From positions 13,807 to 77,806 of the forward strand of contig CAZGCA010000010.1 of assembly GCA_964524145.1 (NCBI GenBank): DNA of 64,000 nucleotides. The letters are read 5' to 3'. Each line of letters starts with the position of its first letter. Position 1 is the stretch's first letter. This document shows, in pieces, positions 10,295 through 42,662 of this stretch. The translations under genes and the position numbers were made by a program. Source of the DNA: an uncultured bacterium (GTDB lineage: Bacteria; Hydrogenedentota; CAZGCA01). The notes beneath the pieces are model-generated. The model was not told the origin of the DNA and did no database searches. It was given only the letters and a program-made list of their open reading frames with translations.

Positions 10295-11851
10295 ATGGCG
10301 AGGGAGACGCCCGCACGGTTCTCGGACGCGTACCCGCACACGGTACGCCGCACGTTCCTTGTGAGGGAAGCCCCGACCGCTCGCGAGACGGGTCAGAGAC
10401 GGAATCTTCCCGAGAAGATCGTAAGCTGCCTCTGGTACGAGGGAAGGTTCAGCGGCCACGAGCTTGTCTGCGACGACGGGACGAAAGCCGAGGTGGTGTC
10501 GCCGGGCTGGTGGAACCTCGAGGGAGGACCGGATTTCCACGATGCCCAGATACGGTTCGTCACGCCGGGCGGCTCGCGACTGGTGACGGGCGACGTCGAG
10601 ATACATCTCACGGCAGGCGACTGGCGCGCTCACGGCCATCATACCGACCCGCGCTACGACAACGTGGCACTGATCGCGACGCTCTACGAGCCGCGACGCG
10701 TTCCGGCAGCGAAGAACAGCAAAGGCGACCGGCTGCGGCAGGTCTTTCTCGAAAAACAGTTTCTCGACCTGGTCAGGCGCGAGGCACGGCGTATCGATCC
10801 CGACGACTACCCGTATTCGCGGCCCGACAACGTCGGCCACTGCTGCTTGACGCTCGCGCAGTCCGGCACGGAACGTATCAAGCAGGTGCTCGATCTCGCG
10901 GGCGACTGGCGTATGGTGGCGAAATCCGAATCGTTTGCCGAGATGATAGCCGGCGACGGTCTCGACCAGACCTATTACGCGGGGATAATGCGGGCGCTCG
11001 GGTACAAAAGCTTCAAACGGGAGTTCGGTGAGCTTGCGTCGCGGGCGCCGTACGCGCTCCTTCGCGAACTTGGCCGTTCCGCCGGTGTCGCCGCCGATCC
11101 GGTGCTGACCATCCAATCCATTCTGTTCGGTGTGGCGGGTCTGACACCGAAACGCCTGAAAACGGAAAAGGACGATCTCCAGCTCGCCAGGCATGTTAGG
11201 GATATCCGGTCGAGCTGGCGTCAGCTGAAGAAGTACTTCTCCGACGCGGACAGTATGGACAGGGCTGCATGGTCCGGACGAGCCGTGAGGCCCGCAAACA
11301 CGCCCGCGAGACGTATTGCGGGCGCTGCGCACCTCCTTGCCCGGTTCGGTGACGTCGGCATCTCGCAGAAGATTATCGAGACCGTTCGCTCTTCCACCAA
11401 CAAACGCGGAGGCACGAAGGCGTTGCAGGACCTGTTCACGGTAGACGCGCCGGGCGATTACTGGACGTCGCACAGCAAGTGGGGCGGCGCGAGGCTCGGT
11501 CGTCCGCTGAAGCTCATCGGAAAGAGCCGCGCGCTCGCGATCATCGTCAACGCGGTAGTTCCTGCGACCCTTGCTCACGCCCGCCGGTCGAAGGACAGGG
11601 AACTCGAAACGAAGCTCTTTGAACTATACTCGGGGCTGCCGCGACTGCCTGCGAATTCCGTGACCCGGCTCATGACGCACAGGATATTCGGCATGCAGAC
11701 GAAATCGTCAGAAGATCCCGCCGCCTGCGATACAAGGAAGGTACTCTGCAACGCGCGTCGCGAACAGGGTCTCATCCAGCTGTTTAACGATTGGTGCTCG
11801 CAAAACCCCACCTGCGCGAACTGCGCCGTTCTGCCGTTGCTCTCAAACTGA
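10295..11851 (+). CDS. DUF2851-family protein
   Basis: CLWYEGRF...LVCDDGTKAEVVSPGWWNLEGGPDFHDAQIRF...GDVEIHLTAGDWRAHGHHTDPRYDNVALIATL follows the DUF2851 pattern (DG..V.V.PG..N...GPDF.A.I....GDVEIH...SDW..H.H..D..YDNV). The likely start is ATG 10295, preceded by GGGGAGGTGGG. The antisense ORF 10157..11578 is spurious. Confidence 0.6.
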   Translation: MARETPARFSDAYPHTVRRTFLVREAPTARETGQRRNLPEKIVSCLWYEGRFSGHELVCDDGTKAEVVSPGWWNLEGGPDFHDAQIRFVTPGGSRLVTGDVEIHLTAGDWRAHGHHTDPRYDNVALIATLYEPRRVPAAKNSKGDRLRQVFLEKQFLDLVRREARRIDPDDYPYSRPDNVGHCCLTLAQSGTERIKQVLDLAGDWRMVAKSESFAEMIAGDGLDQTYYAGIMRALGYKSFKREFGELASRAPYALLRELGRSAGVAADPVLTIQSILFGVAGLTPKRLKTEKDDLQLARHVRDIRSSWRQLKKYFSDADSMDRAAWSGRAVRPANTPARRIAGAAHLLARFGDVGISQKIIETVRSSTNKRGGTKALQDLFTVDAPGDYWTSHSKWGGARLGRPLKLIGKSRALAIIVNAVVPATLAHARRSKDRELETKLFELYSGLPRLPANSVTRLMTHRIFGMQTKSSEDPAACDTRKVLCNARREQGLIQLFNDWCSQNPTCANCAVLPLLSN

Positions 11852-15601: not shown

Positions 15602-16906
15602 TTGACAAACTCAAGGAACAAAACAGTCCTCTTTGTGTGTACGGGGAACGCGGGACGGAGCCAGATTGCCGAGGCCCTTTTCACTCCGTTGACAGCGAGC
15701 GATGTATACGTTATCAGTGCGGGCGTGGATCCGTGGCGGGACTTACACCCCGTTGCCGGATGTCTCCTCCAGGAAAGAGGCATAGAAACGAGCGGGCTTC
15801 ACCCAAAGCACGTGAAAGACTTCGTGGACACACCGGTCGATTGGGTAGTTACTATTGGTGACCGTGCGAGGAGTGAAACGCCGAGGGTGGGTGCGAATCC
15901 GACCCGCATTCATTGGGACATTTCCGATCCAGCGGATGCCGATGGGACTGGACGCGAGGATGCCGTATTCCGCGATACCCTCAAGGACATCGAGGACCGA
16001 CTGCCCTGTCTTCTCTCTCAGGTTGGGGATAGTCCGTCTGCGGTGGAATTGCATTTCGAGCCAGGAATATCCACCTGTGTTGTTCGGCCGAATCGGTTTC
16101 AGCCATCTAAGCATTTGGCCGCGATTGCCGCGGCCGGATTTAAATGTATTGAGCTGAACTGCTTTTGCGGTAGTGATGATTTCCCTTGGGACATGGCTTC
16201 CCAGGTGGACGAGTTGCGCCAGAGCTTGGTCGATACGGGGGTCCGCCTATACTCCGTTCATGCCGCAGGCGGAATCGGCGGGATGCGTGGAGGGCGATCC
16301 GAACGGCTATCCGTGGACTTGTGTAAAGCGTATGCTGACTTGGCGGCGGAGCTGGGGGCTCCCATAGTGACTATGCACGCGGGGTTGCCTCCTGATGGGG
16401 AAAAGGTTGCCGAGACAAGACAACTGCGCCGGTCCCTCGATGAACTTTGTCGTCATGTTCTGGGCATGCCCTGTAGGTATGCTTGGGAAAACATTCCCTG
16501 GCGACTGTCTGTAGCGGAACATTCTGAATGGATCCGTGAACTTGACCCAGGCGCATTCAGCTTTGTGCTCGATTGTGGGCACTCACACATTGATGGCACG
16601 ACCGAAGCGTATCTCGAAACCTGCCAGGGGCTCCTCTCCAACCTGCACCTTAATGACAACAATGGAAAGCATGACGAACACGAGATTCCCGGCGTCGGCA
16701 GTCTTCGGTGGAAGGAGTTCATGACACTGTTGGAAAGCAGTGGATACATTGGTCCGCTTATGCTGGAAATCGAGGCCCGAGAGCGCCAGGATTGTCTGCA
16801 TGCTGTACTCGCTGAAGCACACGCGTCGGTTGATTGGCTCAAGAGCCTTCAGCAACCGGGTTCGCCCCTAGCGGAGGCAGGATTCGAACCGCCGAAATTG
16901 GGATGA
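15602..16906 (+). CDS. Fusion protein: low-molecular-weight phosphotyrosine phosphatase/ArsC-like domain plus a xylose-isomerase-like TIM-barrel domain (sugar phosphate isomerase/epimerase)
   Basis: N-terminal VLFVCTGNAGRSQIAEALF (CX5R(S) P-loop of LMWPc/ArsC). The C-terminal roughly 280 aa carries an AP-endonuclease-2/xylose-isomerase-like TIM pattern (ELNCF..., VTMHAG, WENIP, LDCGHSHIDG, LHLNDNNGKHDEHEIPGVGSL). Confidence 0.6.
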   Translation: MTNSRNKTVLFVCTGNAGRSQIAEALFTPLTASDVYVISAGVDPWRDLHPVAGCLLQERGIETSGLHPKHVKDFVDTPVDWVVTIGDRARSETPRVGANPTRIHWDISDPADADGTGREDAVFRDTLKDIEDRLPCLLSQVGDSPSAVELHFEPGISTCVVRPNRFQPSKHLAAIAAAGFKCIELNCFCGSDDFPWDMASQVDELRQSLVDTGVRLYSVHAAGGIGGMRGGRSERLSVDLCKAYADLAAELGAPIVTMHAGLPPDGEKVAETRQLRRSLDELCRHVLGMPCRYAWENIPWRLSVAEHSEWIRELDPGAFSFVLDCGHSHIDGTTEAYLETCQGLLSNLHLNDNNGKHDEHEIPGVGSLRWKEFMTLLESSGYIGPLMLEIEARERQDCLHAVLAEAHASVDWLKSLQQPGSPLAEAGFEPPKLG

Positions 16907-29029: not shown

Positions 29030-29941
29030 ATGAAAAGGAACTCCGGATTTACGCTGATTGAGCTGCTCGTGGTTATCGCCATCATCGGCATACTGGCCGC
29101 GATTCTGCTGCCGGCGCTGGCGCGGGCACGCGAAGCGGCGCGGCGTGCCACCTGCGCAAACAACCTTAAACAACAGGGGTTGGTGTTCAAGATGTACGCC
29201 AACGAGTGGAACGGCCGCTTCCCGCCGGTAGCGATCGACCAGTGTGTGAAAGTCGAAGGGAACGGTATCGTGTACACAGGTGAACCGGCGGCCGTTGTCG
29301 CACCCAACGGGCCGTCAATCTATCCCGAGTACCTGACGGACGCCAAGGTTCTCGTATGCCCGTCGGACAGGGAGGGTATGGAGTATTTCGAGGGCGGCTG
29401 GTGGTCGGATGATAACGGCAATATCCAGCCGTGCCTGTTCCACACGATGAGCTACGTGTATCTCGGCTGGATTCTTATGGGACACGAGTTTATATGGGGC
29501 GGTGTTAACGGCAAGGACCCGAATGATCCGACGTTCGTTTTTGAAGATGTAAGACTCGGCGGGTTGTTCGATTTCGCTATGGCTATAGGCCGATTCCCGG
29601 ATACTAACCCTGATAACCCCTCTTGGCCGACGTCAACGGACGTTGATTTGACATTCCCGGCAGGTTACGGAAACGTCCCTCCGAACGGGAGAACCATCTA
29701 CCGTCTGAGAGAAGGCATTGAGCGCTTCATGATCACCGACATCAACAATCCTGCAGCAAGTGCGAAAGCGCAGAGCGAGGTGGCGGTGACGTGGGATATG
29801 GTGAGCGCAGACGCGGACAATTTTAACCACATCCCGGGTGGCTCCAACGTGCTTTTTATGGACGGGCACGTCGAGTTCATAAAGTACCCCGGGAAGCATC
29901 CGGTTACGAAGGCAATGGCATTCGCGTCTTCTTGGTTCTAG
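29030..29941 (+). CDS. DUF1559 protein (prepilin-type N-terminal methylation motif plus H-X9-DG C-terminal motif), Planctomycetota-type
   Basis: [48 protein letters not shown] at the N-terminus and [16 protein letters not shown] at the C-terminus. AAGGAGG precedes the ATG. Confidence 0.85.
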
Positions 29942-30612: not shown

Positions 30613-32919
30613 TCAGTACCCGATGTCCTTTGACCACTCTGCCCGGTACAGCCAGGCCGTGTTCCTATAGAGGCCCTGAGTATAGTCAGCCCGTTTGGTA
30701 ACGTCCGCGTCGAAGCCGCCGGTGTAGAAAACGCGGCCCTCGTGTTCCGGGAACGGCGATTTCATGAAATACCTTGCACCACGCAGACTGCACCCGCTGG
30801 TACACGCCTGGTGTGCAGCCTCGTAGTCATAGATCAGGCTCAACTCGTATTTCCGGGTCTCCACGTCGCGTGTCAGCAGAAACGTGCCGTTCCAGGGCGC
30901 TCTTGTCAACTCATACTTGTGCGGGAAACAATGGGCCCAGGTGCCGCTCAAATGTTGCAGCCGCCCGGTTCTGAGATCTTTGTGAGGCTCGAAGTAGTTG
31001 TAGCCCGAGAAGAAGTGGGAACCTCTTCGGGATACCGGTCCGTATGTCTCATCCATGAACTTACTGCCGTTGAGCTCCTCCACGAATGTGAGGGGGTCGG
31101 TACGATTGTCGATCCGGAGGACAACGCCGTTCAAAATGAGCGTGGCCAGGAACTCCTGGCCGGATCCGTCAGCTGCTGGTACGGCGGTAAAGGCGCGTGG
31201 AGCGTTGGCCAGGTTCTCGCTCGGCAGGCTGAGCACTTCCGACCACGTGCTCGTCTCGTCGTCTCGCCGGAACACCTTGCCGGCCATTCCAATAAGGTTC
31301 TGCCCGTTGATGTTGAGTTCAGTGATTGGGCGCCCGACGGGGTTGTCGGTGTCGTCGATGTCGAACTCAGGTGTCGTGTCCCAACGGATGTATCCGGCCG
31401 CCTTCCGATCATAAACTCCTCGGTAAATCTTGCCGGGCGCTGTGCCCGCAAAGGCTTCATGCACGCCTGTCACGGAATTGACAGCGGTCCAATAGTTGCG
31501 CACGAAGGGGGCTTGCGTATACTTGCCCGCTCCAGCGCCGCCCGGCGGAACTACCGAGTCTTCATCCAGCAGGAACTTCCCCCACTCGCCCGTGGAGGGG
31601 TCCTTCCAGTACGTGTTGACAAATCCTCTGTAAATATCCGTCACTCCGGCATACAGGATCTTGAACGGCTCGGGCAGCGGGCTCCCTTCCTTGTCCGTCG
31701 TGAGCTCGAGCACCGCCATCTCATCCACCCGCATAGTGCCCGTTCCGAAATAGTGGTCCACCTTCCAGGGTGCCTCAGCGCTCTCCTTCACCACAATCAA
31801 CGCGCCGTAATAGCCGTTGTGGTCTCCCGGCGGGAGGCTGTTGATCTCATCAGTAACAGGCAGCGGCATCTTCAATAACGCCCGGTCGTTCCAGTTTCCG
31901 AGCCCGGCATATAACTTACCCTGGAAGGTTGCGAGATGGTCCATTTCCGTCGCTTGGATAACTTTGCCGTTCTCATCGGGTTCGCCCATCCGGATTTCCT
32001 CGGTGTAGACCCAAGCGCCCTGGACGGCCCGAAGGAAGTCGAGCTGCACCTGTGTGACCGGCTCGTTGAATACGCCGACATCAGACACGATGGTCTCGTC
32101 GGTTTCGTCAGTCGCCCAAGAGCGCGCCACCCATTTGGATTCCCTGAGCTTCGTTTTCAGAATCAAGGCTTGAGCTTTGGCATCTGCATTCTCCGGCACG
32201 AACTGGATCAAGAAAGGAAGCCTCGACCGGTTACTTGACTTGTCCCCCTCTTTCCCGTTCCACTCGTTCAGATATGTAATCGGCGAGGCGCTTTCCCGGC
32301 TCGATGAGCTATTGCCGATCGCTTGTTTAATCTGACGCTGCAACTCTTTGTTGACGGTGCTGCTTACGACGGCTTGAACGTCGAAGGCCAGCCCGTTATA
32401 CACGCTCAGGCTCGTGACAGGCTTCATGCCTTTCACGCGCTCTCGCTCGAAGTAGACTGGATTGAGCGTGGCAAGCGCAGCGAGGTGAGCACCCGCTTCG
32501 TATCCCATCATGCTTATTTGATCGGGGTCGCCACCGTAACTGCGGATGTTTTCCTGGGCCCAACGAACGGCTGCTGCCACATCTTGGGCCATGTTGTCGA
32601 ATCCGGCTTTAGGAGCAAGCCTGTAGTTGATACTGACGTAGATCCATCCCTGGTTCGTGAACCATGGGACCTGGTTCTTCGTCACTTCAGCATCGGCTTT
32701 GTCTCCGGCCTCCCATCCACCGCCGTGCACCATGATCATCACCGGCGCGAGCTGATCGCATGCCTCGGGGAGATAGATGTCCAGGGAAGTGAGCGAGGCA
32801 GGTGTATTGGGTCGATCTGCATAGCGGATATCCTTGGTTGGCTTTGCAGCCCAGGCACCGCCAACAAGTATGGTTGATGAGAGAATTGTCAAAACCAGGT
32901 GCTTAATAAGCGACCTCAT
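30613..32919 (-). CDS. Secreted two-domain protein: N-terminal esterase/lipase-like alpha/beta hydrolase domain (atypical nucleophile elbow) plus a roughly 450-aa C-terminal domain
   Basis: Signal peptide, MIMVHGGGWEAGDK (HGGG oxyanion motif), then DQISMMGYEAGAHLAAL, where the GxSxG Ser position is Glu. The antisense ORF 30742..31878 is spurious. Confidence 0.55.
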   Translation of the reverse strand: MRSLIKHLVLTILSSTILVGGAWAAKPTKDIRYADRPNTPASLTSLDIYLPEACDQLAPVMIMVHGGGWEAGDKADAEVTKNQVPWFTNQGWIYVSINYRLAPKAGFDNMAQDVAAAVRWAQENIRSYGGDPDQISMMGYEAGAHLAALATLNPVYFERERVKGMKPVTSLSVYNGLAFDVQAVVSSTVNKELQRQIKQAIGNSSSSRESASPITYLNEWNGKEGDKSSNRSRLPFLIQFVPENADAKAQALILKTKLRESKWVARSWATDETDETIVSDVGVFNEPVTQVQLDFLRAVQGAWVYTEEIRMGEPDENGKVIQATEMDHLATFQGKLYAGLGNWNDRALLKMPLPVTDEINSLPPGDHNGYYGALIVVKESAEAPWKVDHYFGTGTMRVDEMAVLELTTDKEGSPLPEPFKILYAGVTDIYRGFVNTYWKDPSTGEWGKFLLDEDSVVPPGGAGAGKYTQAPFVRNYWTAVNSVTGVHEAFAGTAPGKIYRGVYDRKAAGYIRWDTTPEFDIDDTDNPVGRPITELNINGQNLIGMAGKVFRRDDETSTWSEVLSLPSENLANAPRAFTAVPAADGSGQEFLATLILNGVVLRIDNRTDPLTFVEELNGSKFMDETYGPVSRRGSHFFSGYNYFEPHKDLRTGRLQHLSGTWAHCFPHKYELTRAPWNGTFLLTRDVETRKYELSLIYDYEAAHQACTSGCSLRGARYFMKSPFPEHEGRVFYTGGFDADVTKRADYTQGLYRNTAWLYRAEWSKDIGY

Positions 32920-34611: not shown

Positions 34612-34800
34612 TCAGAAACCCCTGCCAACGGCTGCATTGCCCGGCGACGCTGGAAATTCGCCTGGGTACCTGACAAATTCCACATGCCCGTCGAGGTAAA
34701 GCGCATTCACACCACCCGGAATATGAGCAAACCGGCCCTTGGCGCCGGTAATCCTGCCCCCTTCAATGTAGTCCCACATGCTGTACAACAAGGGAACTGC
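34612..34800 (-). pseudogene. C-terminal fragment of a DUF1559 (H-X9-DG) gene
   Basis: ORF 34612..34926 ends ...GGVNALYLDGHVEFVRYPGEF, matching the DUF1559 C-terminus. The prepilin-like N-terminus is absent and the upstream part of the ORF is nonsense. Confidence 0.45.
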
Positions 34801-35129
34801 CGGCAAGAAACGTGAAGTTTCGCCGTTCAACCACCTCCTTTCAGCTTGCGACAAACATATACAACGTCTAATCGGGACTATAAGACAAGAATGTTGCATT
34901 GTCAAGGGTGACGTTGGTCGGCGCAATCATGATAATGCTGAGAAGGCCGACCGAGTGCGACGCAGTAGACGGGGGCAAATCCGGTGTCGCAGTAGAGCTG
35001 TGGTGAGAAAAGCGGGTTAAACACACCCGGGACACCCTTAATCGTTCAGCAATCCAATGAAGACATACCTGTAAAGCACTATGGATAGCAAGAAACACGA
35101 CAAACAGGCTTTCACCCACCAGGTGAGCC

Positions 35130-35440
35130 AAGCCATAACGACACCGCGAAGTCCCGCAGGGACGGTTGAGAATAGCCCAGGGGTTCACTGTGGTCGAAGC
35201 TATAACGACACGCCGAAGTCCCGCAGGGACGGTTGAGAATAGCCCAGGAGTTCACTCCTGGGAATCGGTATGATGCAACGGCCTTCAGTCCCGTAGGGAC
35301 GGCTGAACCCATTTCTTGAGGTCAAAGTCTTTCAGCCGTCCCTCCGGGACTCGATATGTTGAGGGAACGCCGGTGAACCGCAGGAATAAATTCCTGGGCT
35401 ATTGTCGTTCGTCCCTGCGGGACTCTGCAAAAACGTTCCG
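35130..35440. repeat. Cluster of direct and inverted repeats built on the palindromic core gtcccgcagggac
   Basis: The unit ataacgacacNgcgaagtcccgcagggacggttgagaatagcccagg occurs at 35130-35176 and 35196-35243. Degenerate direct copies (cagtcccgtagggacggctgaa) and inverted copies (agccgtccctccgggactcg; cctgggctattgtcgttcgtccctgcgggact) follow. It is intergenic, upstream of comM. Confidence 0.7.
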
Positions 35441-35563: not shown

Positions 35564-37126
35564 TTGTGGCATGGTGGAGGTGCCGAGGTGCTTGCCCGGG
35601 TCTATTCCGCGGCGGTAATGGGCGTCCACGCGTACCAGGTGGACGTCGAAGTGGACACGTCACGCGGTCTGCCTTCGTTCTCGACCGTTGGTCTGCCAGA
35701 CGCTTCCGTCAAAGAGAGCAAGGACCGGGTGCGTGCGGCGATACGGAACTCGGGCTACTTCTTTCCCGGCGGCGTGATAACCGTCAACCTTGCCCCGGCT
35801 GACGTCAAGAAGGAGGGCCCGGTCCACGACCTGCCTATCGCGGTGGCGGTCGTCATGGCCACGGGCCAGTGCGGCGCGCAATCCGTCGACGAGTACGCCA
35901 TGGTCGGCGAGCTGTCGCTCGACGGCACCGTCCGGCCGGTCAACGGGGTGCTCTGCATGGCGATGGGAGCCAAGGAGGCCGGCCGTCGAGGCGTCATCGT
36001 CGCCGAGGAGAACGCTGCGGAAGCAGGCGTCGTCGACGGTTTCGACGTGATACCCGTCAAACACCTGCGCGATGCCGTCGGGTTCATCGAGGGTTCGGTC
36101 GAGATCGAGCCCGTCCGCGTGGATATCGCCGAGGTGTTCCGGGAAAGCGCCAGGTACAGGGTCGATTTCTCCGACGTGAAAGGCCAGGCGCACGTCAAAC
36201 GCGCGCTCACCGTCGCCGCCGCCGGAGGCCATAACCTGTTGATGGTGGGCCCGCCCGGTTCCGGCAAGACGATGCTTGCGCGCCGGTTGGCCTCGATCCT
36301 GCCCGATATGACGCTCGACGAAGCGCTCGACACCACCAAGGTACACAGCATCACCGGCCTTACGAGCGGGAAGAACTGGCTGGTTGCTACGAGACCGTTC
36401 CGGTCGCCGCACCACACGACGTCCGGCGCGGCAATGGCGGGCGGCGGCGTGCCGCCGAAACCCGGCGAGGTCAGCCTGGCGCACAACGGCGTGCTCTTTC
36501 TCGACGAGTTCCCGGAGTTTAAGCGCGACGTGCTCGAGGTGTTGCGCCAGCCTGTTGAGGACGGTATCGTCTACATATCACGGGCGAGCTACGCGGTCGC
36601 GTACCCGTCGCGGTTCATGCTCGTTGCGGCGATGAACCCGTGCGTATGCGGCCATCTCGGCGACCCGTACAAGGCGTGTTCCTGCACGCCGGGCCAGATC
36701 CACCGGTACCGGTCACGGATAAGCGGGCCGCTGCTGGACAGGATAGACCTGCACGTCGAGGTGCCGGCACTGAGCTACAAGGAGATGTCCGCACGAGGCC
36801 CTTCCGGCGACGAGTCTTCGACCATCCGCGCGCGGGTGCAGGCGGCACGCGAACGGCAACGCGCACGCTACAGCGACGACGATATCGCCCAAAACGCGGA
36901 CCTGCAGCCGGGCCAGCTCAGAAAATACTGCGTGCTGTCGCCCGAGGCCGAAGAGATGATCAAGACCGCCGTCACACGGCTCGGGCTCTCGGCTCGGGCA
37001 TACGACAAGATATTCAAAGTGTCGCGAACGATAGCCGACCTCGCCGACGAACCCGACATAGGCATCGAGCACGTCTCCGAAGCCATCCAGTACCGCTCGC
37101 TCGACCGCGAATCTGCCCTGGTCTGA
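35564..37126 (+). CDS. comM: YifB/ComM-family Mg-chelatase-like AAA+ ATPase
   Basis: LARVYSAAVMGVHAYQVDVEVD...GLPDASVKESKDRV (N-terminal Lon-like domain), Walker A MVGPPGSGKTM, VLFLDEFPEF, and a C-terminal ComM domain. The antisense ORFs 35660..36484 and 35755..36486 are spurious. Confidence 0.85.
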   Translation: MWHGGGAEVLARVYSAAVMGVHAYQVDVEVDTSRGLPSFSTVGLPDASVKESKDRVRAAIRNSGYFFPGGVITVNLAPADVKKEGPVHDLPIAVAVVMATGQCGAQSVDEYAMVGELSLDGTVRPVNGVLCMAMGAKEAGRRGVIVAEENAAEAGVVDGFDVIPVKHLRDAVGFIEGSVEIEPVRVDIAEVFRESARYRVDFSDVKGQAHVKRALTVAAAGGHNLLMVGPPGSGKTMLARRLASILPDMTLDEALDTTKVHSITGLTSGKNWLVATRPFRSPHHTTSGAAMAGGGVPPKPGEVSLAHNGVLFLDEFPEFKRDVLEVLRQPVEDGIVYISRASYAVAYPSRFMLVAAMNPCVCGHLGDPYKACSCTPGQIHRYRSRISGPLLDRIDLHVEVPALSYKEMSARGPSGDESSTIRARVQAARERQRARYSDDDIAQNADLQPGQLRKYCVLSPEAEEMIKTAVTRLGLSARAYDKIFKVSRTIADLADEPDIGIEHVSEAIQYRSLDRESALV

Positions 37127-37128
37127 CG
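36968..37128. repeat. Direct repeat copy 1: the authentic 3' end of comM
   Basis: About 160 bp that reappears at roughly 93 % identity at 38466..38629 (gccg[tc]c[at]cac[ga]cggctcgg[gc]c[tc]ctcggctcg[ga]gcatacgacaagatattcaaagtgtcgcgaacgatagccgacctcgccgacgaacc...cgaatctgccctggt[ct]tgacg). Confidence 0.85.
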
Positions 37129-37204
37129 ATGAACCTCACCCTATCCTGGGTAGGAATAGGAGAATGATAGCTGCCCCTTTTCCCCAGACAACAAGATTCA
37201 GCTG

Positions 37205-37233
37205 TTGACACCTTTCCGGAAAAGGAGTAGACT
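37205..37233 (+). promoter_or_regulatory. Sigma-70-like promoter candidate upstream of the DUF433 gene
   Basis: TTGACA (37205-37210), then 17 nt, then TAGACT (37228-37233). It is flanked by the inverted repeats gcccctttcccc and ggggaaaagg. Confidence 0.4.
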
Positions 37234-37339
37234 CGCAGATCAGAAAGGGGAAAAGGTGCCGTGATGGGGACGTTCATGGACAACCCTACAGGGGCGTCAT
37301 GAATCCTCAAGACAGCGACTATGTGGAGGTGAAGGTCTC

Positions 37340-38047
37340 GTGACACACCCAAAGACGACCACCCAAACCGATAGGCCAGAATTGGATACGCCCACGTACC
37401 CGGCTGCTGAGGCCGCACGGCTCGTGGACATAAGCGCCACGCGGGTGCGCCGGTGGCTGAAAGGATATCACTACTGGTACAGGGCTGGGGTGCGCCATCA
37501 GCGCCCCGTAATTCGTCGTAGAGGAACGGCTGGCACGAACTACGCCTCTTTCTTAGACTTGGTTGACTTGTTGTTCGTCAAGCGATTCCTGGATGAAAAG
37601 ATTAGTCTTCAGAAAGTGCGAAGAGCCCTAGATGAGGCCGCGCGGATCCTCGGCACAGACCACTTCGCGCGCCAGCGCTTCTTCACAGACGGAAGCGACA
37701 TCTATCTGCAAGTGAAGGAAGAGGGAGATGCGATTCTGCAGCTTCTTGCTGGCGGACAGTGGGTAATAGCCGAGATCATAAAACAGCTTGCCCAGCAAAT
37801 CGACTTTGACGAGCCCACTGGCCTTGCCCGTCGCTGGTATCCGTTGGGCCGTGAAGGTCTAATTGTGCTGGACCCCCTCATCTCCTTCGGGCGTCCTTCG
37901 ATCATTGGGAGGGGGGTCGCAACTGCAAATGTCTACGACCTTTTCATTGCCGAGGCACTAAGGTCAGACCGAGTCTGCACTTGGATGGACCTCAGCCCCA
38001 AAGAACTAGACGCGGCAGTCCGGTTCGAACAACAGCTGGCAGCGTGA
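37340..38047 (+). CDS. DUF433-domain protein (putative antitoxin) with a long N-terminal extension
   Basis: The C-terminal SFGRPSIIGRGVATANVYDLFIAEALRSDRVCTWMDLSPKELDAAVRFEQQL fits DUF433 (RP.I.GTRI.V.DV...L..G.S.EEI...YP.LT.E.I.AAL). GTG start at 37340. At 235 aa it is far longer than typical roughly 80-aa DUF433 proteins. Confidence 0.5.
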   Translation: MTHPKTTTQTDRPELDTPTYPAAEAARLVDISATRVRRWLKGYHYWYRAGVRHQRPVIRRRGTAGTNYASFLDLVDLLFVKRFLDEKISLQKVRRALDEAARILGTDHFARQRFFTDGSDIYLQVKEEGDAILQLLAGGQWVIAEIIKQLAQQIDFDEPTGLARRWYPLGREGLIVLDPLISFGRPSIIGRGVATANVYDLFIAEALRSDRVCTWMDLSPKELDAAVRFEQQLAA

Positions 38048-38427
38048 AATTCTTCATTGACAACAATCTAAGCCAGCAGCTTGCCAACGGGATGAAGGCG
38101 TTTGGAGAGCCTGTCGAACATCTCAAGGAAAAATTTCCCGAGAACACAGACGACCTAGTTTGGCTCAAGTATGTAGGGCAGCAGAAGATATTCCTTGTGA
38201 CACGGGACGACCGCATGCGACATAACCAAATGGAGCTTCAGTCCCTTAAGAAACACAAGGTAGGCGCGTTCTTTCTCGGCGGGAAGAACCTGAACCGTTG
38301 CCGGTTGATTCAACAGTTGGTTAGAAACTGGCCCCGAATGAAGGACTACGCCAAAAAGGAAAGGCGACCGTTCGCCTTTCGTGTCCCGCCAACAGGGACG
38401 AAATTCATGCGGATTTCTCTGAGATGA
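38044..38427 (+). CDS. DUF5615-like (Mut7-C/PIN-like putative toxin) protein, partner of DUF433
   Basis: VKFFIDNNLSQQLANGMKAFGEPVEHL...DDLVWLKYVGQQKIFLVTRDDRM matches the DUF5615 pattern (MKFL.DENLP..L...L...GHDV.HV...DEEI...A...GRVLVTKDKDF). The GTG start overlaps the upstream stop (GTGA). Confidence 0.5.
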   Translation: MKFFIDNNLSQQLANGMKAFGEPVEHLKEKFPENTDDLVWLKYVGQQKIFLVTRDDRMRHNQMELQSLKKHKVGAFFLGGKNLNRCRLIQQLVRNWPRMKDYAKKERRPFAFRVPPTGTKFMRISLR

Positions 38428-38465
38428 GAACGGCCAACGTCTTGTAGCCAACTCAGGCCATCTGT

Positions 38466-38629
38466 GCCGCCCTCACCCGGCTCGGCCTCTCGGCTCGAGC
38501 ATACGACAAGATATTCAAAGTGTCGCGAACGATAGCCGACCTCGCCGACGAACCGGACATAGGGACCGAGCACGTCTCCGAAGCCATCCAGTATCGCTCT
38601 CTCGACCGCGAATCTGCCCTGGTTTGACG
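38466..38629. repeat. Direct repeat copy 2: the displaced duplicate of the comM 3' end
   Basis: See 36968..37128. The copy is out of any long ORF context. Confidence 0.85.
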
Positions 38630-38781
38630 TCCAATTGGGCGATAGTCAAGGCATCTTCGGGCAAGAAAAGCGGCCTTCGCCAATTCCTTCGGAACTCAGA
38701 AATCGCGTTCTTGTCCCCCTCTTGCTCCGCATATGTCAAGAGCCGAATCTAGGAGCAGCGAGGGCGGCGCAACGTCTTATG

Positions 38782-39048
38782 CTAGTTAAGGCTAATGACG
38801 CCGATTCTTGCGCGAACAGAACCGGCTAGGCCGTCCAAGTCCACGACTACGTGCCACCGGCCACCATGAGGGGCAGCGACCCGACACGGCGAGACCTTCG
38901 TCCATCCGCCATAAAAGCGAAAACGTCGTCCAGACCGGTAGTTCGAGTAGTTGCCTTGATCCATGAGCATCACTCGTGCCTGCCTGTCGAGCGTGACCTC
39001 GATCGCATCGTTATTGCCTAAGGTCAACGTTGAATGGATGTACTGCAT
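38782..39048 (-). CDS. DUF1883-like small protein
   Basis: MQYIHSTLTLGNNDAIEVTLDRQARVMLMDQGNYSNYRSGRRFRFYGGWTKVSP...GGRWHVVVDLDG follows the DUF1883 pattern. Confidence 0.45.
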   Translation of the reverse strand: MQYIHSTLTLGNNDAIEVTLDRQARVMLMDQGNYSNYRSGRRFRFYGGWTKVSPCRVAAPHGGRWHVVVDLDGLAGSVRARIGVISLN

Positions 39049-39346
39049 GATTCTCTCCTTTGAGTCTGGGCAGCCTGTATCTACCAGTGTCTACTGTGTA
39101 GTATCGCGGATGAGGTGCCGAGCCGAGCGCCCAGTTTACCGACCAGCACTCTCATCGTTCGTCAACCGCATTTGGGGCTTCAAGCGCTTGTGTGGCCGCA
39201 CGCGAACAGTCTTGGGACCTGGCTTACCAGGACCGTAACATCTGGGACCCGGTTTCGACCGGCGGTGCCGTCGAACTCGCAAGCTCTCGAGCCCGAGCCC
39301 ACGTGACCGTCCACATTCTCTACTCATATCATACGCCCTCCCGTGT

Positions 39347-39502
39347 CTATCTGACCGGAATGCGCCAAGCGCGTAGGCCGTAGTCTCGCGCCCACAACTT
39401 CTCGCCCGTCTTTGGGTGACGCCGCCAAGCCCTATAGACGTACTTGGCATTCTTGCCGTTAGCACGGGCATTGTGCATGTGTCTTCTTACTGACTCTTTC
39501 AT
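39347..39502 (-). CDS. Small basic protein (51 aa) with a strong Shine-Dalgarno site; unknown function
   Basis: Not in the ORF track (below 60 aa). Reverse-strand translation gives MKESVRRHMHNARANGKNAKYVYRAWRRHPKTGEKLWARDYGLRAWRIPVR. AAGGAGTGA lies 5 nt upstream of the ATG. Confidence 0.3.
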   Translation of the reverse strand: MKESVRRHMHNARANGKNAKYVYRAWRRHPKTGEKLWARDYGLRAWRIPVR

Positions 39503-39632
39503 CGCTATCACTCCTTTCTACTTGAAAGAATACGTATATGATGCTACCCTTATATGCCGATGACGGATCAGAATTTGCCGTTGGTCTCATGATCTTGGTT
39601 AATGGCAAATTACCCTACTCGACAGGCATATA

Positions 39633-40295
39633 ATGTGGGCGGACTTCTTGCAAGGTAGGGCACGTTGGTGGAATCGAAACATGGATGAGAACCTCGCTGA
39701 AAAAGTCAGGCAAGAGTTGACAAACGAGGTCTATAGCAAGTTGATCGTCTTCGCTACGAGACTGGCAAAAAGATACGTGTGGCGCGGTGGAGACTTATCT
39801 GCCTGTGAGCCCGGCGATATAGCACTGCCTCAAGGCAACAGTGTGAGAGGTATCGTGTCGAATGCTATCATAAAGGTCATGGAGGGACGAAATAAGTGGG
39901 ACCCCCAACGGGTAAAGCTGACAACGTGCTTGATGTACAACATCCGTCGTGATATTTGCCACCTATACGAGAAGAAGGCAGCCCAACATGAACGCCAAGC
40001 CGTGGCTATGCCGGATACTTTCGTCGACGGAAGCACTGAGCCTGGGCGATATCGCCCGGCCCTACCTTCTGATCCACGTGCGCTTGCTGTGGAGAACGAA
40101 CTTCTTGAAGACATCTACTGCAGTCTTGATGGTGAGGATGACCTGATCGCGGTTTTCGAAAGGATGCTCGAAGGTAAGTCGCGAAAAGAAGTCGCTACGG
40201 AATTGCATCTCACACCAGACGAAATCACCAACACACGTAAGCGCCTTAGCAAGCGGCTAGAAGCTGTTTACAGGCGACACTGCGATGAACAGTGA
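39633..40295 (+). CDS. Sigma-70 region-4-like HTH protein (ECF-sigma-like regulator) in an accessory segment
   Basis: The C-terminal LEGKSRKEVATELHLTPDEITNTRKRLSKRLEAV is a sigma region 4 / LuxR-like HTH. The N-terminal region is loosely region-2-like. Confidence 0.4.
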   Translation: MWADFLQGRARWWNRNMDENLAEKVRQELTNEVYSKLIVFATRLAKRYVWRGGDLSACEPGDIALPQGNSVRGIVSNAIIKVMEGRNKWDPQRVKLTTCLMYNIRRDICHLYEKKAAQHERQAVAMPDTFVDGSTEPGRYRPALPSDPRALAVENELLEDIYCSLDGEDDLIAVFERMLEGKSRKEVATELHLTPDEITNTRKRLSKRLEAVYRRHCDEQ

Positions 40296-40741
40296 GCCTA
40301 CGGGTTTGGAAAGGGGCCATTGATATGTGCCACAGGGAAAATCGAAGAAGTCAGTTCGAGACCTTCTTGGATTTCGTTTTTGGCGATCCCGACGAGGTCG
40401 ATTCCATGTCCTCCGAGGAGTTGCGTGACGAGATCGCGTTGTGCGGTGGAGACATGGACAAGATTGTCGAATTGGTGCAGACAGATGTGCACAATGCAAT
40501 GGGGAGAAACCGCAGAGAAGAGGCTCGGAACATTTACCAAGAGTACAGAGAAAGGATCAAAGAGTTGCCAGAAGCAATACGGGGGAAGGTTGACCGTGTC
40601 TTGCGTAGAGATCCTCGATTGGCCCCCGTGATGATGCGGAAATTTGAGGGGGTCAGTGCAGAAGATCTTGCCAGTATGGAAGAGGATCTCGCCCTGCTCG
40701 ATCACCTAGATGAGTCGGATCATGAAGACGAAGCCTCGTGA
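40292..40741 (+). CDS. Hypothetical acidic protein
   Basis: The ORF has only a 4-nt overlap with the upstream gene. It is rich in charged residues. No recognised motif. Confidence 0.3.
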   Translation: MSLRVWKGAIDMCHRENRRSQFETFLDFVFGDPDEVDSMSSEELRDEIALCGGDMDKIVELVQTDVHNAMGRNRREEARNIYQEYRERIKELPEAIRGKVDRVLRRDPRLAPVMMRKFEGVSAEDLASMEEDLALLDHLDESDHEDEAS

Positions 40742-41522
40742 GACGCTGGCAAGAGCAAAGGCTCGAGAAATCCTCAACTACTTCTGTGTAGGCGACGCCA
40801 GCGAGATAAGCGTCCGTCATTTCGCTGCCCATCGCGGCGCTGTTGTGTTGGAGTCACCCCTCGCATGCGCTGAAGCTCGGCTCGTACATAAGAATGGGGC
40901 AAGAGCAGTCATTCGCGTGAGTAATGACATCCCGCAACAGGGGCGAAAGCGCTTCGCTGTCGCCCACGAGCTGGGTCACTGGGAGCTTCACCGGAGTGAA
41001 TCACAATTTGATCTATTTACTGGCAAAGATGCCGTCTATTCCTACGGCAAGAGCACCCTTGAGATTGAGGCCAACGTTTTTGCGAGCGAGCTTCTGATGC
41101 CTGAGTCGTTGTTTAGGCCCAGGTGTGATAGGTCCGATCCTTCGATACAGGTCATTTCGAATCTTTCACAGGAATTCACGACCACTTTGACTGCGACGGC
41201 AGTGAGATACGTGGATTCGTGTAGTGAATGTTGCGCTGCCGTCTTCTCAAAGGACGGAAAAGTGACATGGTTTCGGTGCCGAAAAGAATGGGGGCTTTGG
41301 ATTCGGGCTGGCACACGAATAGGCCCAAACACATATGCAAGGGATTGTTTCGTTGGCAGCCGTGTCCCCACGACAATGGAGCGTGTCCCCCTTGAGTCTT
41401 GGTTTCCAGAGCGCGTTGATCTCGGGCGACAACCGTTGCTCGAGACATCGATGGTTTTGGGACTTTACGGAACGGTGTTGACCCTGCTTTGGATAAAGGG
41501 AGGTATTGATCCCAGGCAATGA
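40722..41522 (+). CDS. ImmA/IrrE-family metallopeptidase (DUF955-type, mobile-element regulatory protease)
   Basis: HEXXH AVAHELGHWELH and EIEANVFASELLMPESLF. Confidence 0.6.
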   Translation: MKTKPRETLARAKAREILNYFCVGDASEISVRHFAAHRGAVVLESPLACAEARLVHKNGARAVIRVSNDIPQQGRKRFAVAHELGHWELHRSESQFDLFTGKDAVYSYGKSTLEIEANVFASELLMPESLFRPRCDRSDPSIQVISNLSQEFTTTLTATAVRYVDSCSECCAAVFSKDGKVTWFRCRKEWGLWIRAGTRIGPNTYARDCFVGSRVPTTMERVPLESWFPERVDLGRQPLLETSMVLGLYGTVLTLLWIKGGIDPRQ

Positions 41523-41663
41523 TGGGCACGCGCGTGTTTGTCCCCTCTGACCGGCGGTTGCTCAAATCTGTGATCCACAGTCGTAGCCTTGCAGGCTTAG
41601 TTGGTTTGGCGATTCGACGACGAAAGCCGCGGACTGCGCTCGCTAATCTCCGGTCTGGAGTCA

Positions 41664-41820
41664 GCGGTCAGTTGCTAGTGGCCAGCTGCTGGTGGCAGAG
41701 GGCTGGCTTCGTCCGTGCTCGTAATCGTGCGCTCGGCTTGTTCTCTGTCCGCAGATTAACGCAGATAGACGCAGACTTGGCAGTAGTCAGTGGTCAGTTG
41801 GTGGTTGTCGGTAGTCAGGC
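41664..41820. repeat. About 160-bp direct repeat, copy 1, flanking the hicBA module
   Basis: gtcagttgctagtgg...cttcgtccgtgctcgtaatcgtgcgc...gtccgcagattaacgcagatagacgcagacttggcagtagtcagtggtcagttgg is repeated with small indels at 42504..42662. Confidence 0.8.
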
Positions 41821-41933
41821 CGGGGCCATGGGTTCTTGCCCTCGTGGGACGAGGATCTCAGGCCGGACTCCCGGTGTCATCGCGGGCGACGGCGGAACAG
41901 TGTTCACGGATAGCGCTCGGATGTCCGCCGTTT

Positions 41934-42179
41934 TCATGACTGCTTTCTCTTGTAAGCCTCCAAGAATTCATCTCTCGGGATACGGGCCTGACTACAGATC
42001 GTTCTCAGAGTGGAAGCCTTGATCTTCGAATGATTAGGCATTGTCAATGGGGTTGTGTTGCCGTCGGCATTCTCGCGCACCATAGAAACGTGTTCTTTTT
42101 CGCGTACCATTCGAAAGCCCAAGTTCTCCAGCGCCTTAATCACTCTCCGTTTTGGCGCATCAACAGGGAACTTCGTCAT
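41934..42179 (-). CDS. hicA: HicA-family toxin (YcfA-like mRNA interferase)
   Basis: ALENLGFRMVREKEHVSMVRENADGNTTPLTMPNHSKIKASTLRTICSQARIPRDEF fits the HicA pattern (GSHH.F......TVP.H.KDL..GTL..IL.QAG). Confidence 0.65.
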   Translation of the reverse strand: MTKFPVDAPKRRVIKALENLGFRMVREKEHVSMVRENADGNTTPLTMPNHSKIKASTLRTICSQARIPRDEFLEAYKRKQS

Positions 42180-42403
42180 CAGTCTTCTATTCCAGCTTCA
42201 GCAACAAACGCCTCGAGGATTGGCGGCTCCACATCCAGCACCGCCTCCCCAAAGCTCTCTATGTGAAAGCGTATTGCTGATTTCACATCCGAGAGGGCTT
42301 CCTCATAGGTGTCTCCCTGACCCACCACAACACCTTTGAGCCCCAAAGGATACGCTACGCATCCATCAGGATGTTTCTCGACGATGATCTTGAACTGTCT
42401 CAT
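42179..42403 (-). CDS. hicB: HicB-family antitoxin (UPF0150 fold)
   Basis: MRQFKIIVEKHPDGCVAYPLGLKGVVVGQGDTYEEALSDVKSAIRFHIE (compare YKIVIEKDEDGGYVA..PELPGC.TQGDTLEEAL.N.KEAI). Its stop abuts the hicA start. Confidence 0.65.
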   Translation of the reverse strand: MRQFKIIVEKHPDGCVAYPLGLKGVVVGQGDTYEEALSDVKSAIRFHIESFGEAVLDVEPPILEAFVAEAGIED

Positions 42404-42503
42404 TGGCCTTCCTTTCTGCCGACACATTGTCCATCCAAATAGGATGATAACGTTCCGCTGTGTGCGCTGTCAAACAGAAATGCGGTAGACGGGGCGGAAA
42501 GCA

Positions 42504-42662
42504 GCAGTCAGTTGCTCGTGGCGGAGGGTTGGGTTCGTCCGTGCTCGTGCTCGTAATCGTTATCGTGCGCCCGGGTCGGGTTCTGTCCACAGATTAACGC
42601 AGATAGACGCAGATTCGGTAGTAGTCAGTAGTCAGTTGCTAGTTGTCAGTTGCTGGTGGCGG
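42504..42662. repeat. About 160-bp direct repeat, copy 2, flanking the hicBA module
   Basis: See 41664..41820. Confidence 0.8.

Follow-up and report, generated by a model that had tools for sequence, protein, structure and literature searches.

Organization of the comM locus

A stretch of 64,000 nucleotides (nt) from an uncultured bacterium of the Hydrogenedentota (contig CAZGCA010000010.1; this whole stretch is hereafter called the window) carries an intact comM (yifB) gene, which is followed directly by a pair of small genes of the toxin-antitoxin type and then by a second copy of the comM 3' end. The comM gene extends from 35564 to 37126 on the plus strand, where the longest open reading frame (ORF) encodes 520 amino acids; both the database protein P0001 (100% identical) and the gene call in a nearly identical assembly (L130) begin at 35588 and give 512 amino acids. 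The gene stands at full length beside the inserted cassette, and all three Pfam domains of ComM are present, namely ChlI (1.1e-43), Mg_chelatase (8.6e-95) and Mg_chelatase_C (1e-31; residues 416-511). The window contains no tRNA gene.

An earlier reading of this DNA, made from the letters alone (the sequence-only reading), had described a repeat of about 160 bp with about 93% identity at the comM tail. Base-by-base alignment established a direct repeat of 163 nt at 36966-37128 and 38467-38629, in which 153 positions are identical (93.9%) without any gap, with a spacing of 1501 nt between the copies (E-value by blastn within the window, 1.5e-68). Copy 1 (36966-37128, plus strand) represents the functional last 53 codons of comM, including the stop codon, and 2 additional nt. 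Copy 2 (38467-38629, plus strand) is a displaced comM tail that is now a pseudogene fragment: the ComM frame is kept, with V-to-L and I-to-T replacements and a TGA stop codon at 38625-38627, an in-frame TAG is located upstream at 38445-38447, and a usable start codon is absent. The homology between the copies ends on the right at 2 nt beyond the comM stop codon in both (TGAcg), and its left limit is a sharp one near codon 468 of 520. Since the sequences flanking the two copies are unrelated, the repeat is not part of a larger segmental duplication, an arrangement that the sequence-only reading had named as one part of what would contradict an insertion. No third copy of the comM tail was detected in the window, even with a blastn word size of 7 and E<=10. 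Within the repeat, a block of 55 nt is identical in both copies (36999-37053, plus strand; 38500-38554 in copy 2) and encodes the most conserved segment of ComM. As judged from this alignment, the block appears to be the likeliest place for a crossover.

A predicted toxin-antitoxin pair between the two comM tails

The inserted cargo is 1338 nt long (37129-38466, plus strand), and consists of a leader with a promoter-like site, two genes, which are the sole ORFs between the repeats, and a spacer of 39 nt between the stop codon of the toxin-type gene and repeat copy 2. The candidate promoter of sigma-70 type, TTGACA-17-TAGACT, is located where the sequence-only reading had indicated it (37205-37233, plus strand), and agrees with the consensus at 10 of 12 positions. 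Its 17-nt spacer holds a near-palindrome (CCTTTCCGGAAAAGG, 37211-37225), which is a possible operator.

The upstream gene (37340-38047, plus strand) encodes an antitoxin-type protein of 235 amino acids with an N-terminal HTH_66 domain and a C-terminal DUF433 (COG2442) domain. By Pfam, HTH_66 was detected at 1.8e-06 and DUF433 at 7.3e-04, the latter with 19.7 bits and hence below the cut-off of 23.6 bits; the protein also matched PDB entry 5af3 ('VapBC49') at 2e-12 over residues 14-202. The downstream gene (38044-38427, plus strand) encodes a toxin-type protein of 127 amino acids, a PIN-like nuclease (PIN_10/DUF5615) that was recognized by PIN_10 at 9.8e-19 and by DUF5615 at 3.2e-07. Its start overlaps the stop codon of the antitoxin-type gene by 4 nt (GTGA). 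An overlapping pair of DUF433 and DUF5615 PIN-type genes, as recognized earlier from the translations, is thus supported both by Pfam and by the overlap. The antitoxin-type gene had also been considered unusually long, which is not the case: more than 600 homologues have the same length (628 homologues were found, mostly of 226-241 amino acids and 60-72% identical), and the fusion has been known since 2009.

Fusions of a winged helix-turn-helix (wHTH) domain with COG2442/DUF433, paired with PIN genes as in Rv2018/Rv2019, were described by Makarova et al. (2009), and PIN-COG2442 pairs have been studied as VapBC systems. The same pairing was observed in all three homologous pairs looked up (among loci L134-L139), each with a first protein of 231-235 amino acids and a PIN_10 protein of 126-127 amino acids. 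From its domain architecture, the HTH_66-DUF433/PIN_10 pair is predicted to act as a type II toxin-antitoxin module of the VapBC type. This architecture is common and already described, and the cargo is a widespread mobile toxin-antitoxin module. In the window the gene pair is intact, and it is identical in two further assemblies where these cover it, with no single-nucleotide polymorphism (SNP) against one of them (L133).

Homologues of the pair were observed also in other surroundings. In L134 (1548-5525) and L137 (4462-8687) they lie inside arrays of repeats of 39-105 nt, spaced at 0.5-2.7 kb and with one or two small genes per unit, which by appearance resemble the cassette arrays of chromosomal integrons. 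The plasmid pMESIL01 of Allomeiothermus silvanus, a complete plasmid from an isolate, carries a lone ComM tail fragment corresponding to about residues 435-511 (L140 7001-7640, equal to NC_014213.1 335050-335690), and a degenerate fusion gene with a DUF433 start and a DUF5615 end is located 44 nt away from it on the opposite strand. Here, for a second time and in a different phylum, a comM tail is found together with a member of this toxin-antitoxin family, although the two may have met by chance.

Divergence and composition of the two tails

The ten differences between copy 1 and copy 2 are distributed in a manner characteristic of coding sequence. Eight are synonymous third-position changes, the remaining two being V-to-L at the left edge and I-to-T; the probability of finding at least eight of ten at third positions by chance is 0.0034. 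For seven repeat pairs from five genomes, the pooled differences were 27, 12 and 77 at codon positions 1, 2 and 3, respectively (77 of 116 at the third). This distribution departs from uniformity (P=4e-13), and also from the expectation for duplication in situ (P=3e-6), under which the third-position share would be about 45% if one copy had decayed neutrally in place. The third-position bias therefore argues that both tails evolved inside working comM genes, and that one of the tails is foreign rather than the product of local duplication. This codon-position test can separate a gene-restoring insertion from a local duplication without the need of an empty site.

The cargo also differs from comM in composition. 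The GC content is 0.51-0.57 for the cargo against 0.64-0.67 for comM, and the GC content at third codon positions (GC3) is 0.63-0.64 for the cargo genes against 0.83 for comM. The GC3 level was 0.77 for copy 1 and 0.71 for copy 2, compared with 0.83 for the rest of comM, and 1.3% of all 52-codon segments of comM were as low as copy 2. The lower GC3 of copy 2 gives a weak hint that copy 2 is the imported one. For the window, GC3 is the sole hint as to which copy is native, the nearest ComM relatives being too distant for a mosaic test.

The locus in related genomes

The complete arrangement, with both tail copies, was found in L130, an assembly 99.97% identical to the window that came from a look-up of the exact protein; the look-up of P0001 itself gave no match. 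The two differ by four substitutions within an aligned block of 15.6 kb, and by a fifth in a 1-kb block past a 133-bp deletion. A second assembly, L133, the one contig detected by a metagenome scan with a 26-mer of the tail, comes from another sample series and is 99.55% identical; it has the same comM-cassette junction, and its contig ends inside the cargo so that the left junction alone is covered. Among 24 contigs encoding one identical ComM (P0255), the context was identical in all.

More distant relatives were found by their ComM proteins. The scan of genome contigs for ComM gave relatives at 50-58% identity among the matches listed, and the closest other ComM proteins are 65-68% identical (the nearest, 68%), with unrelated genes downstream. 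Synteny with these nearest relatives was also examined by way of a downstream sulfatase, which proved to be 24% identical to the sulfatase of the window and not its orthologue; this comparison was uninformative.

The SNPs between the window and L133 are unevenly distributed, 26 of the 29 being located in two patches, one in comM at 36307-36433 and the other at 31673-31823. The comM patch contains 11 SNPs, all at third positions, which correspond to 8.7% over 127 nt, and its surroundings are identical. The second patch contains 15 changes in an esterase-like gene, and L130 lacks 133 bp of this region (31691-31823). By their sequence pattern, both patches look like short recombination tracts from alleles with about 9% divergence.

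Scars at comM ends in other genomes

We then surveyed comM in other genomes, at 82 loci that together cover 1.3 Mb and have flanks of at most 10 kb. At 61 of these loci the sequence continues for 3 kb or more past comM, and four of them show a downstream duplication of the comM tail. In L001 the duplication consists of two blocks and the cargo is 2.1 kb, while in L019 a repeat of 188 nt brackets 5.9 kb of cargo. L056 contains three tail copies and two cassettes, one of which has an AbiEii-type toxin gene, and L065 has a repeat of 218 nt around a single cargo gene. At two further loci, L034 and L044, it is the head of comM that is duplicated upstream, over a length of 50-73 nt and again bracketing a small cargo. 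The same 1.3 Mb also contains about 1000 neighbouring genes, for which gene-end repeats were detected just twice, both times in a tandem array of paralogues. The comM ends are thus a genuine and specific hot spot, which favours a targeted process.

This property is not shared by E. coli, for which 5434 matches to the yifB tail were obtained in 5426 genomes with essentially no tail duplication. One double match in E. coli was examined and proved to be an insertion of IS1414. From the survey, small integrase-less cassettes seem to accumulate at comM ends in Planctomycetota and in other phyla that have been little studied, and not in E. coli. If the pattern holds in a systematic scan, it would point to a route of gene acquisition overlooked by island-finding software, which requires an integrase for each island.

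A mosaic test was possible at L065, for which there are three relatives with ComM proteins 88-95% identical. In its left part the functional copy was native-like at 19 of 24 informative sites, and for the last 25 nt it was instead the displaced copy that was native-like, at six of eight sites with the stop codon included. Fisher's test gave P=0.02 with the closest relative, and the support was weaker with the other two. This is the reciprocal mosaic predicted for a single crossover inside the tail. The switch is located in the segment encoding ARA(H/Y)DK...TIADLA, and thus the crossover inferred for L065 falls in the same ComM segment as the 55-nt identical block of the window.

A repeat of another kind was noted at L009, in which a stretch of 127 nt from the middle of comM (11084-11210) recurs with 100% identity at 16034-16160, at the contig end and 4.8 kb downstream. 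Either a larger duplication is truncated here by the end of the contig, or the repeat comes from the assembly.

Origin of the cassette

Taking these observations together, we propose, with a probability of roughly 45%, that a site-specific recombinase specialised for the comM end once made a Campbell-type insertion here, of which the locus is the fossil: a non-autonomous remnant in which the toxin-antitoxin pair has survived. The starting material would have been a circular DNA carrying a slightly diverged comM 3' end together with the toxin-antitoxin operon. One reciprocal crossover with the comM tail of the chromosome, for which the 55-nt identical block is the likeliest site, would have rebuilt comM as an intact hybrid with the cargo placed directly behind it, and would have displaced the useless second tail 1.5 kb downstream. 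As the catalyst, a dedicated site-specific recombinase is favoured because of the strong specificity for comM ends and because of the array found at L056. The remnant would then be comparable to a cis-mobilisable element (CIME), of which the integrase gene may have been deleted or may never have been carried in cis. The DNA-binding antitoxin would neutralise the PIN-like toxin and is probably also a repressor of the TTGACA-17-TAGACT promoter. As loss of the toxin-antitoxin pair would harm the cell, this pair is the part of a decaying element that could be expected to survive longest.

Several results weigh against a dedicated recombinase. No tyrosine or serine recombinase was detected between the repeats or elsewhere in the window, either by motif scan or by ad hoc hidden Markov models (HMMs) applied to all ORFs of at least 60 amino acids, in agreement with the sequence-only reading, which had seen no integrase between the repeats. 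In the eight comparable cassettes of other genomes, again no recombinase was found, nor was there any integrase family among the 25 most-matched of the 164 Pfam families represented by 105 ORFs within 3.5 kb downstream of comM, a ranking in which single matches may hide. An integrase-bearing element at the comM tail was not observed in the 82 genome loci, the 49 viral contigs, or the phage and plasmid collections, the sampling of which is limited, and no phage or plasmid record contained a comM tail resembling a phage attachment site (attP) beside an integrase. Neither an empty site nor an excised form was found, both other assemblies sharing the comM-cassette junction. In addition, the left edges of the tail copies vary, being located at about residues 384, 451, 455, 468, 472 and 486, and such differing edges are unlike the products of one recombinase family with a fixed core site. 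At L065, moreover, about 100 nt of foreign homology lie left of the crossover position inferred there, beyond what is needed for gene restoration.

These same points are readily accounted for if the Campbell-type single crossover was instead carried out by the host RecA protein, an explanation that we consider a serious one even though it appears doubtful on balance. In this case a circle from a sister lineage, either a plasmid or an excised circle, would have carried a comM tail with about 6% divergence and the adjoining operon; the crossover would again lie in the 55-nt block, the left edge would be the junction of the circle, and no integrase would ever have been involved. A perfect identity of 55 nt is long enough for RecA, as judged from the minimal efficient processing segment. 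RecA would explain why recombinases are missing in nine cassettes and beside comM in about 60 other loci, why the left edges of the copies range from about residue 384 to 486, and why the foreign homology in L065 flanks the inferred crossover to the left as well as to the right. Diverged comM alleles do recombine in this population, as the patch at 36307-36433 holds 11 of the 29 SNPs against L133. RecA is not expected, however, to prefer comM, yet scars were found in six or seven of the 82 comM loci and were nearly absent in the roughly 1000 neighbouring genes, some of which are highly conserved. The head duplications, at just 50-73 nt, also speak against RecA, a source of circular DNA with a comM end has to be assumed, and no other genome of this sparse sample showed the cargo genes behind comM. 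It is highly improbable that the comM tail was duplicated in situ, for example through slippage during replication or an unequal crossover, with the cassette entering between the copies later, or that the repeats belong to a larger segmental duplication. Such an origin would fit the observation that each displaced copy is closest, among the genomes sampled, to the functional tail of its own genome, but it is opposed by the coding-type substitutions in both copies (8 of 10 in the window and 77 of 116 in the pool, P=3e-6), the unrelated flanks, the compositionally foreign cargo, and the reciprocal mosaic of L065.

An artificial origin is less credible still. The window and all comparable cases were assembled from metagenomes and strain variation exists at the locus, so that two co-existing strains with comM tails diverged by about 6% might have been joined head to tail by the assembler; both junctions, however, are present in L130 and the left one in L133, the junction between cargo and copy 2 contains no shared sequence that could mislead an assembler, and an isolated comM tail fragment exists also in the complete isolate plasmid pMESIL01. 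The least probable of all is another known route of insertion: IntI may have recombined an integron cassette at its attC site, or the DNA may have arrived with a Tn7-like transposon of the AbaR type or with an element that uses a large serine recombinase. Homologous pairs do occur in integron-like repeat arrays (L134 and L137), large serine recombinase phages are very often found in comM, and islands of the AbaR type are known to use this gene. But none of these routes leaves a 160-nt duplication of the target, serine recombinase elements interrupt comM near residue 222 or 355 and duplicate nothing, and no IntI, transposase or serine recombinase is present. Neither an attC-like site nor transposon ends were seen at the cassette borders, and both the comM tail and a second repeat, which flanks hicBA further downstream, fold no better than shuffled sequences (z between -0.24 and +1.59). 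The possibility that the repeats fold like attC was accordingly rejected, the comM tail giving z of +0.8 to +1.6 against shuffled sequence.

The sequence-only reading had proposed an integrative element that restores its target gene. The comM-end repeat, the intact comM, the foreign cargo and the third-position bias all agree with it, and no intact integrase-bearing element at a comM tail was found in the loci and collections examined; that reading was largely right in kind, and its mechanism is an inference. A broader proposal, which we consider unlikely at present, is that comM ends in several phyla serve as landing pads at which small cassettes without a recombinase are captured and stacked in arrays. 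Such a cassette would contain one or two genes, often a toxin-antitoxin pair, and a diverged comM head or tail would mark its boundary. The driver would be either an unrecognised recombinase encoded elsewhere in the genome, as in integrons, or homology-driven capture by single crossover, and the window would be one instance.

Neighbouring segment and other features of the window

The segment downstream of copy 2 (38630-42650) is low in GC content (0.48-0.59, against 0.64-0.67 for comM) and in GC3 (0.54-0.65, against 0.83), and carries accessory genes. These are a DUF1883 gene (38782-39048, minus strand), a gene for a sigma factor similar to the extracytoplasmic function (ECF) type (39633-40295, plus strand), of which the match is below the NCBIfam cut-off, an ORF of 149 amino acids without family match (40292-40741), a gene for a CapP-like ImmA/IrrE protease (40710-41522, plus strand; PADLOC capP, full length, 3.7e-55), and the hicA (41934-42179, minus strand) and hicB-like (42179-42427, minus strand) genes. 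Neither a cyclic oligonucleotide-based antiphage signalling system (CBASS) nor any other known defence operon adjoins the ImmA/IrrE protease gene. The hicBA genes are bracketed by non-coding direct repeats of about 140 nt with 77-83% identity (41683-41812 and 42509-42650), and thus form a second toxin-antitoxin pair in a repeat-bounded unit. No further copies of this repeat were found in the window, and it showed no special fold as single-stranded DNA.

From its composition, the segment between 38.6 and 42.6 kb looks acquired. It had been suggested to be the remainder of a decayed island; the foreign composition and the accessory genes agree with this suggestion, but the segment cannot be assigned to the element of the cassette because no third copy of the comM tail exists at its far end to link the two. 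In practical terms, the region from 37.1 to 42.6 kb can be marked as acquired DNA with two toxin-antitoxin pairs and a CapP-like regulator, and the odd pseudo-tail of comM is explained.

Upstream of comM, a cluster of tandem and inverted repeats of about 67 nt with AGTCCCGCAGGGACGG palindromes is located at 35123-35424. Two matches to the Acido-Lenti-1 RNA motif in this region reach the Rfam gathering score, one at 35217-35262 on the minus strand (51.9 bits) and the other at 35379-35424 on the plus strand (37.5 bits). Proteins of the DUF1559/N-terminal-methylation (prepilin-like) type are encoded at 29030-29941 and 34612-34926. The window is also rich in sulfatases and Gfo/Idh/MocA oxidoreductases. 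By gene content alone, these families would point to a member of the Planctomycetota.

Comparison with known systems

The comM gene is used by several known elements, including the Tn7-like AbaR islands. In the TIGER study, yifB is among the interrupted genes in the context of 'regulated gene integrity' by large serine recombinase prophages (PMC7192596), and a comM island of A. ferrooxidans with its integrase has been published; the notion that comM (yifB) is an integration hot spot, put forward in the sequence-only reading, is thus documented. These prophages and islands share the target gene with the window, but they split comM internally (at about residues 222, 290 and 355), bring their own recombinase or transposase, and neither duplicate nor restore the gene end. 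In the window comM is unsplit, its tail is duplicated, and no serine recombinase is present, unlike the elements of this class.

Among the proviruses of IMG/VR (L081-L129), many end in a partial comM that starts at about residues 222-225, 308-315 or 353-360. These starts directly adjoin a gene for a serine recombinase of 510-630 amino acids, and in L094 the ORF of the recombinase continues into the C-terminal part of ComM. Large serine recombinase phages very commonly target comM. The comM tails on viral contigs were considered as attP sites and rejected, since they result from the splitting of comM by such phages or from contig ends. A 'plasmid' match in P. aeruginosa was likewise rejected as a comM-tail element, as comM is split internally there, at residue 357 and next to recombinase genes.

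Prophage e14 and phage 21 integrate into the 3' end of the E. coli icd gene. As proposed for the window, the e14 element supplies an alternative end of the gene, the last 165 nt or so, by which the gene is rebuilt while the original tail is left downstream as a pseudogene, and the differences between the two ends are mainly synonymous. They differ in that e14 and phage 21 carry their own tyrosine integrase by the attachment site and are 15-40 kb long, whereas the cassette of the window is 1.3 kb, has no integrase, and targets comM. Integrative genetic elements (IGEs) targeting icd are mentioned in PMC7192596. Of the features of the icd type, the 3'-end repeats, the full-length target gene and the synonymous bias are all present in the window, and a recombinase within the element is not.

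CIMEs and tandem accretion are known at the 3' end of fda in Streptococcus thermophilus, where they involve ICESt1 and ICESt3, and cargo-only remnants occur in tandem island arrays. Tandem island arrays are also discussed in PMC7192596. CIMEs resemble the comM cassettes in being non-autonomous segments that lie at the 3' end of a protein gene between two attachment-site repeats and lack an integrase, and in forming arrays of units, as in L056. For CIMEs, however, cognate integrase-bearing elements are known and a short core is shared, whereas no cognate was found for the comM cases and their repeat edges vary.

With respect to the cargo, the closest known systems are PIN-COG2442 VapBC pairs such as Rv2018/Rv2019 of M. 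tuberculosis, vapBC10 of Synechocystis, and PDB 5af3. As in the window, an upstream DUF433 antitoxin with an N-terminal HTH is followed by an overlapping PIN-like toxin gene (by 4 nt), and the pair behaves as a mobile module of accessory regions. The pair of the window differs in that its toxin belongs to the PIN_10/DUF5615 subgroup, its DUF433 match is below the cut-off, and it is known from sequence alone. Gene-restoring insertion scars with toxin-antitoxin cargo are of a known kind; it is the recurrence of recombinase-less scars at comM ends, in several phyla, that deserves follow-up.

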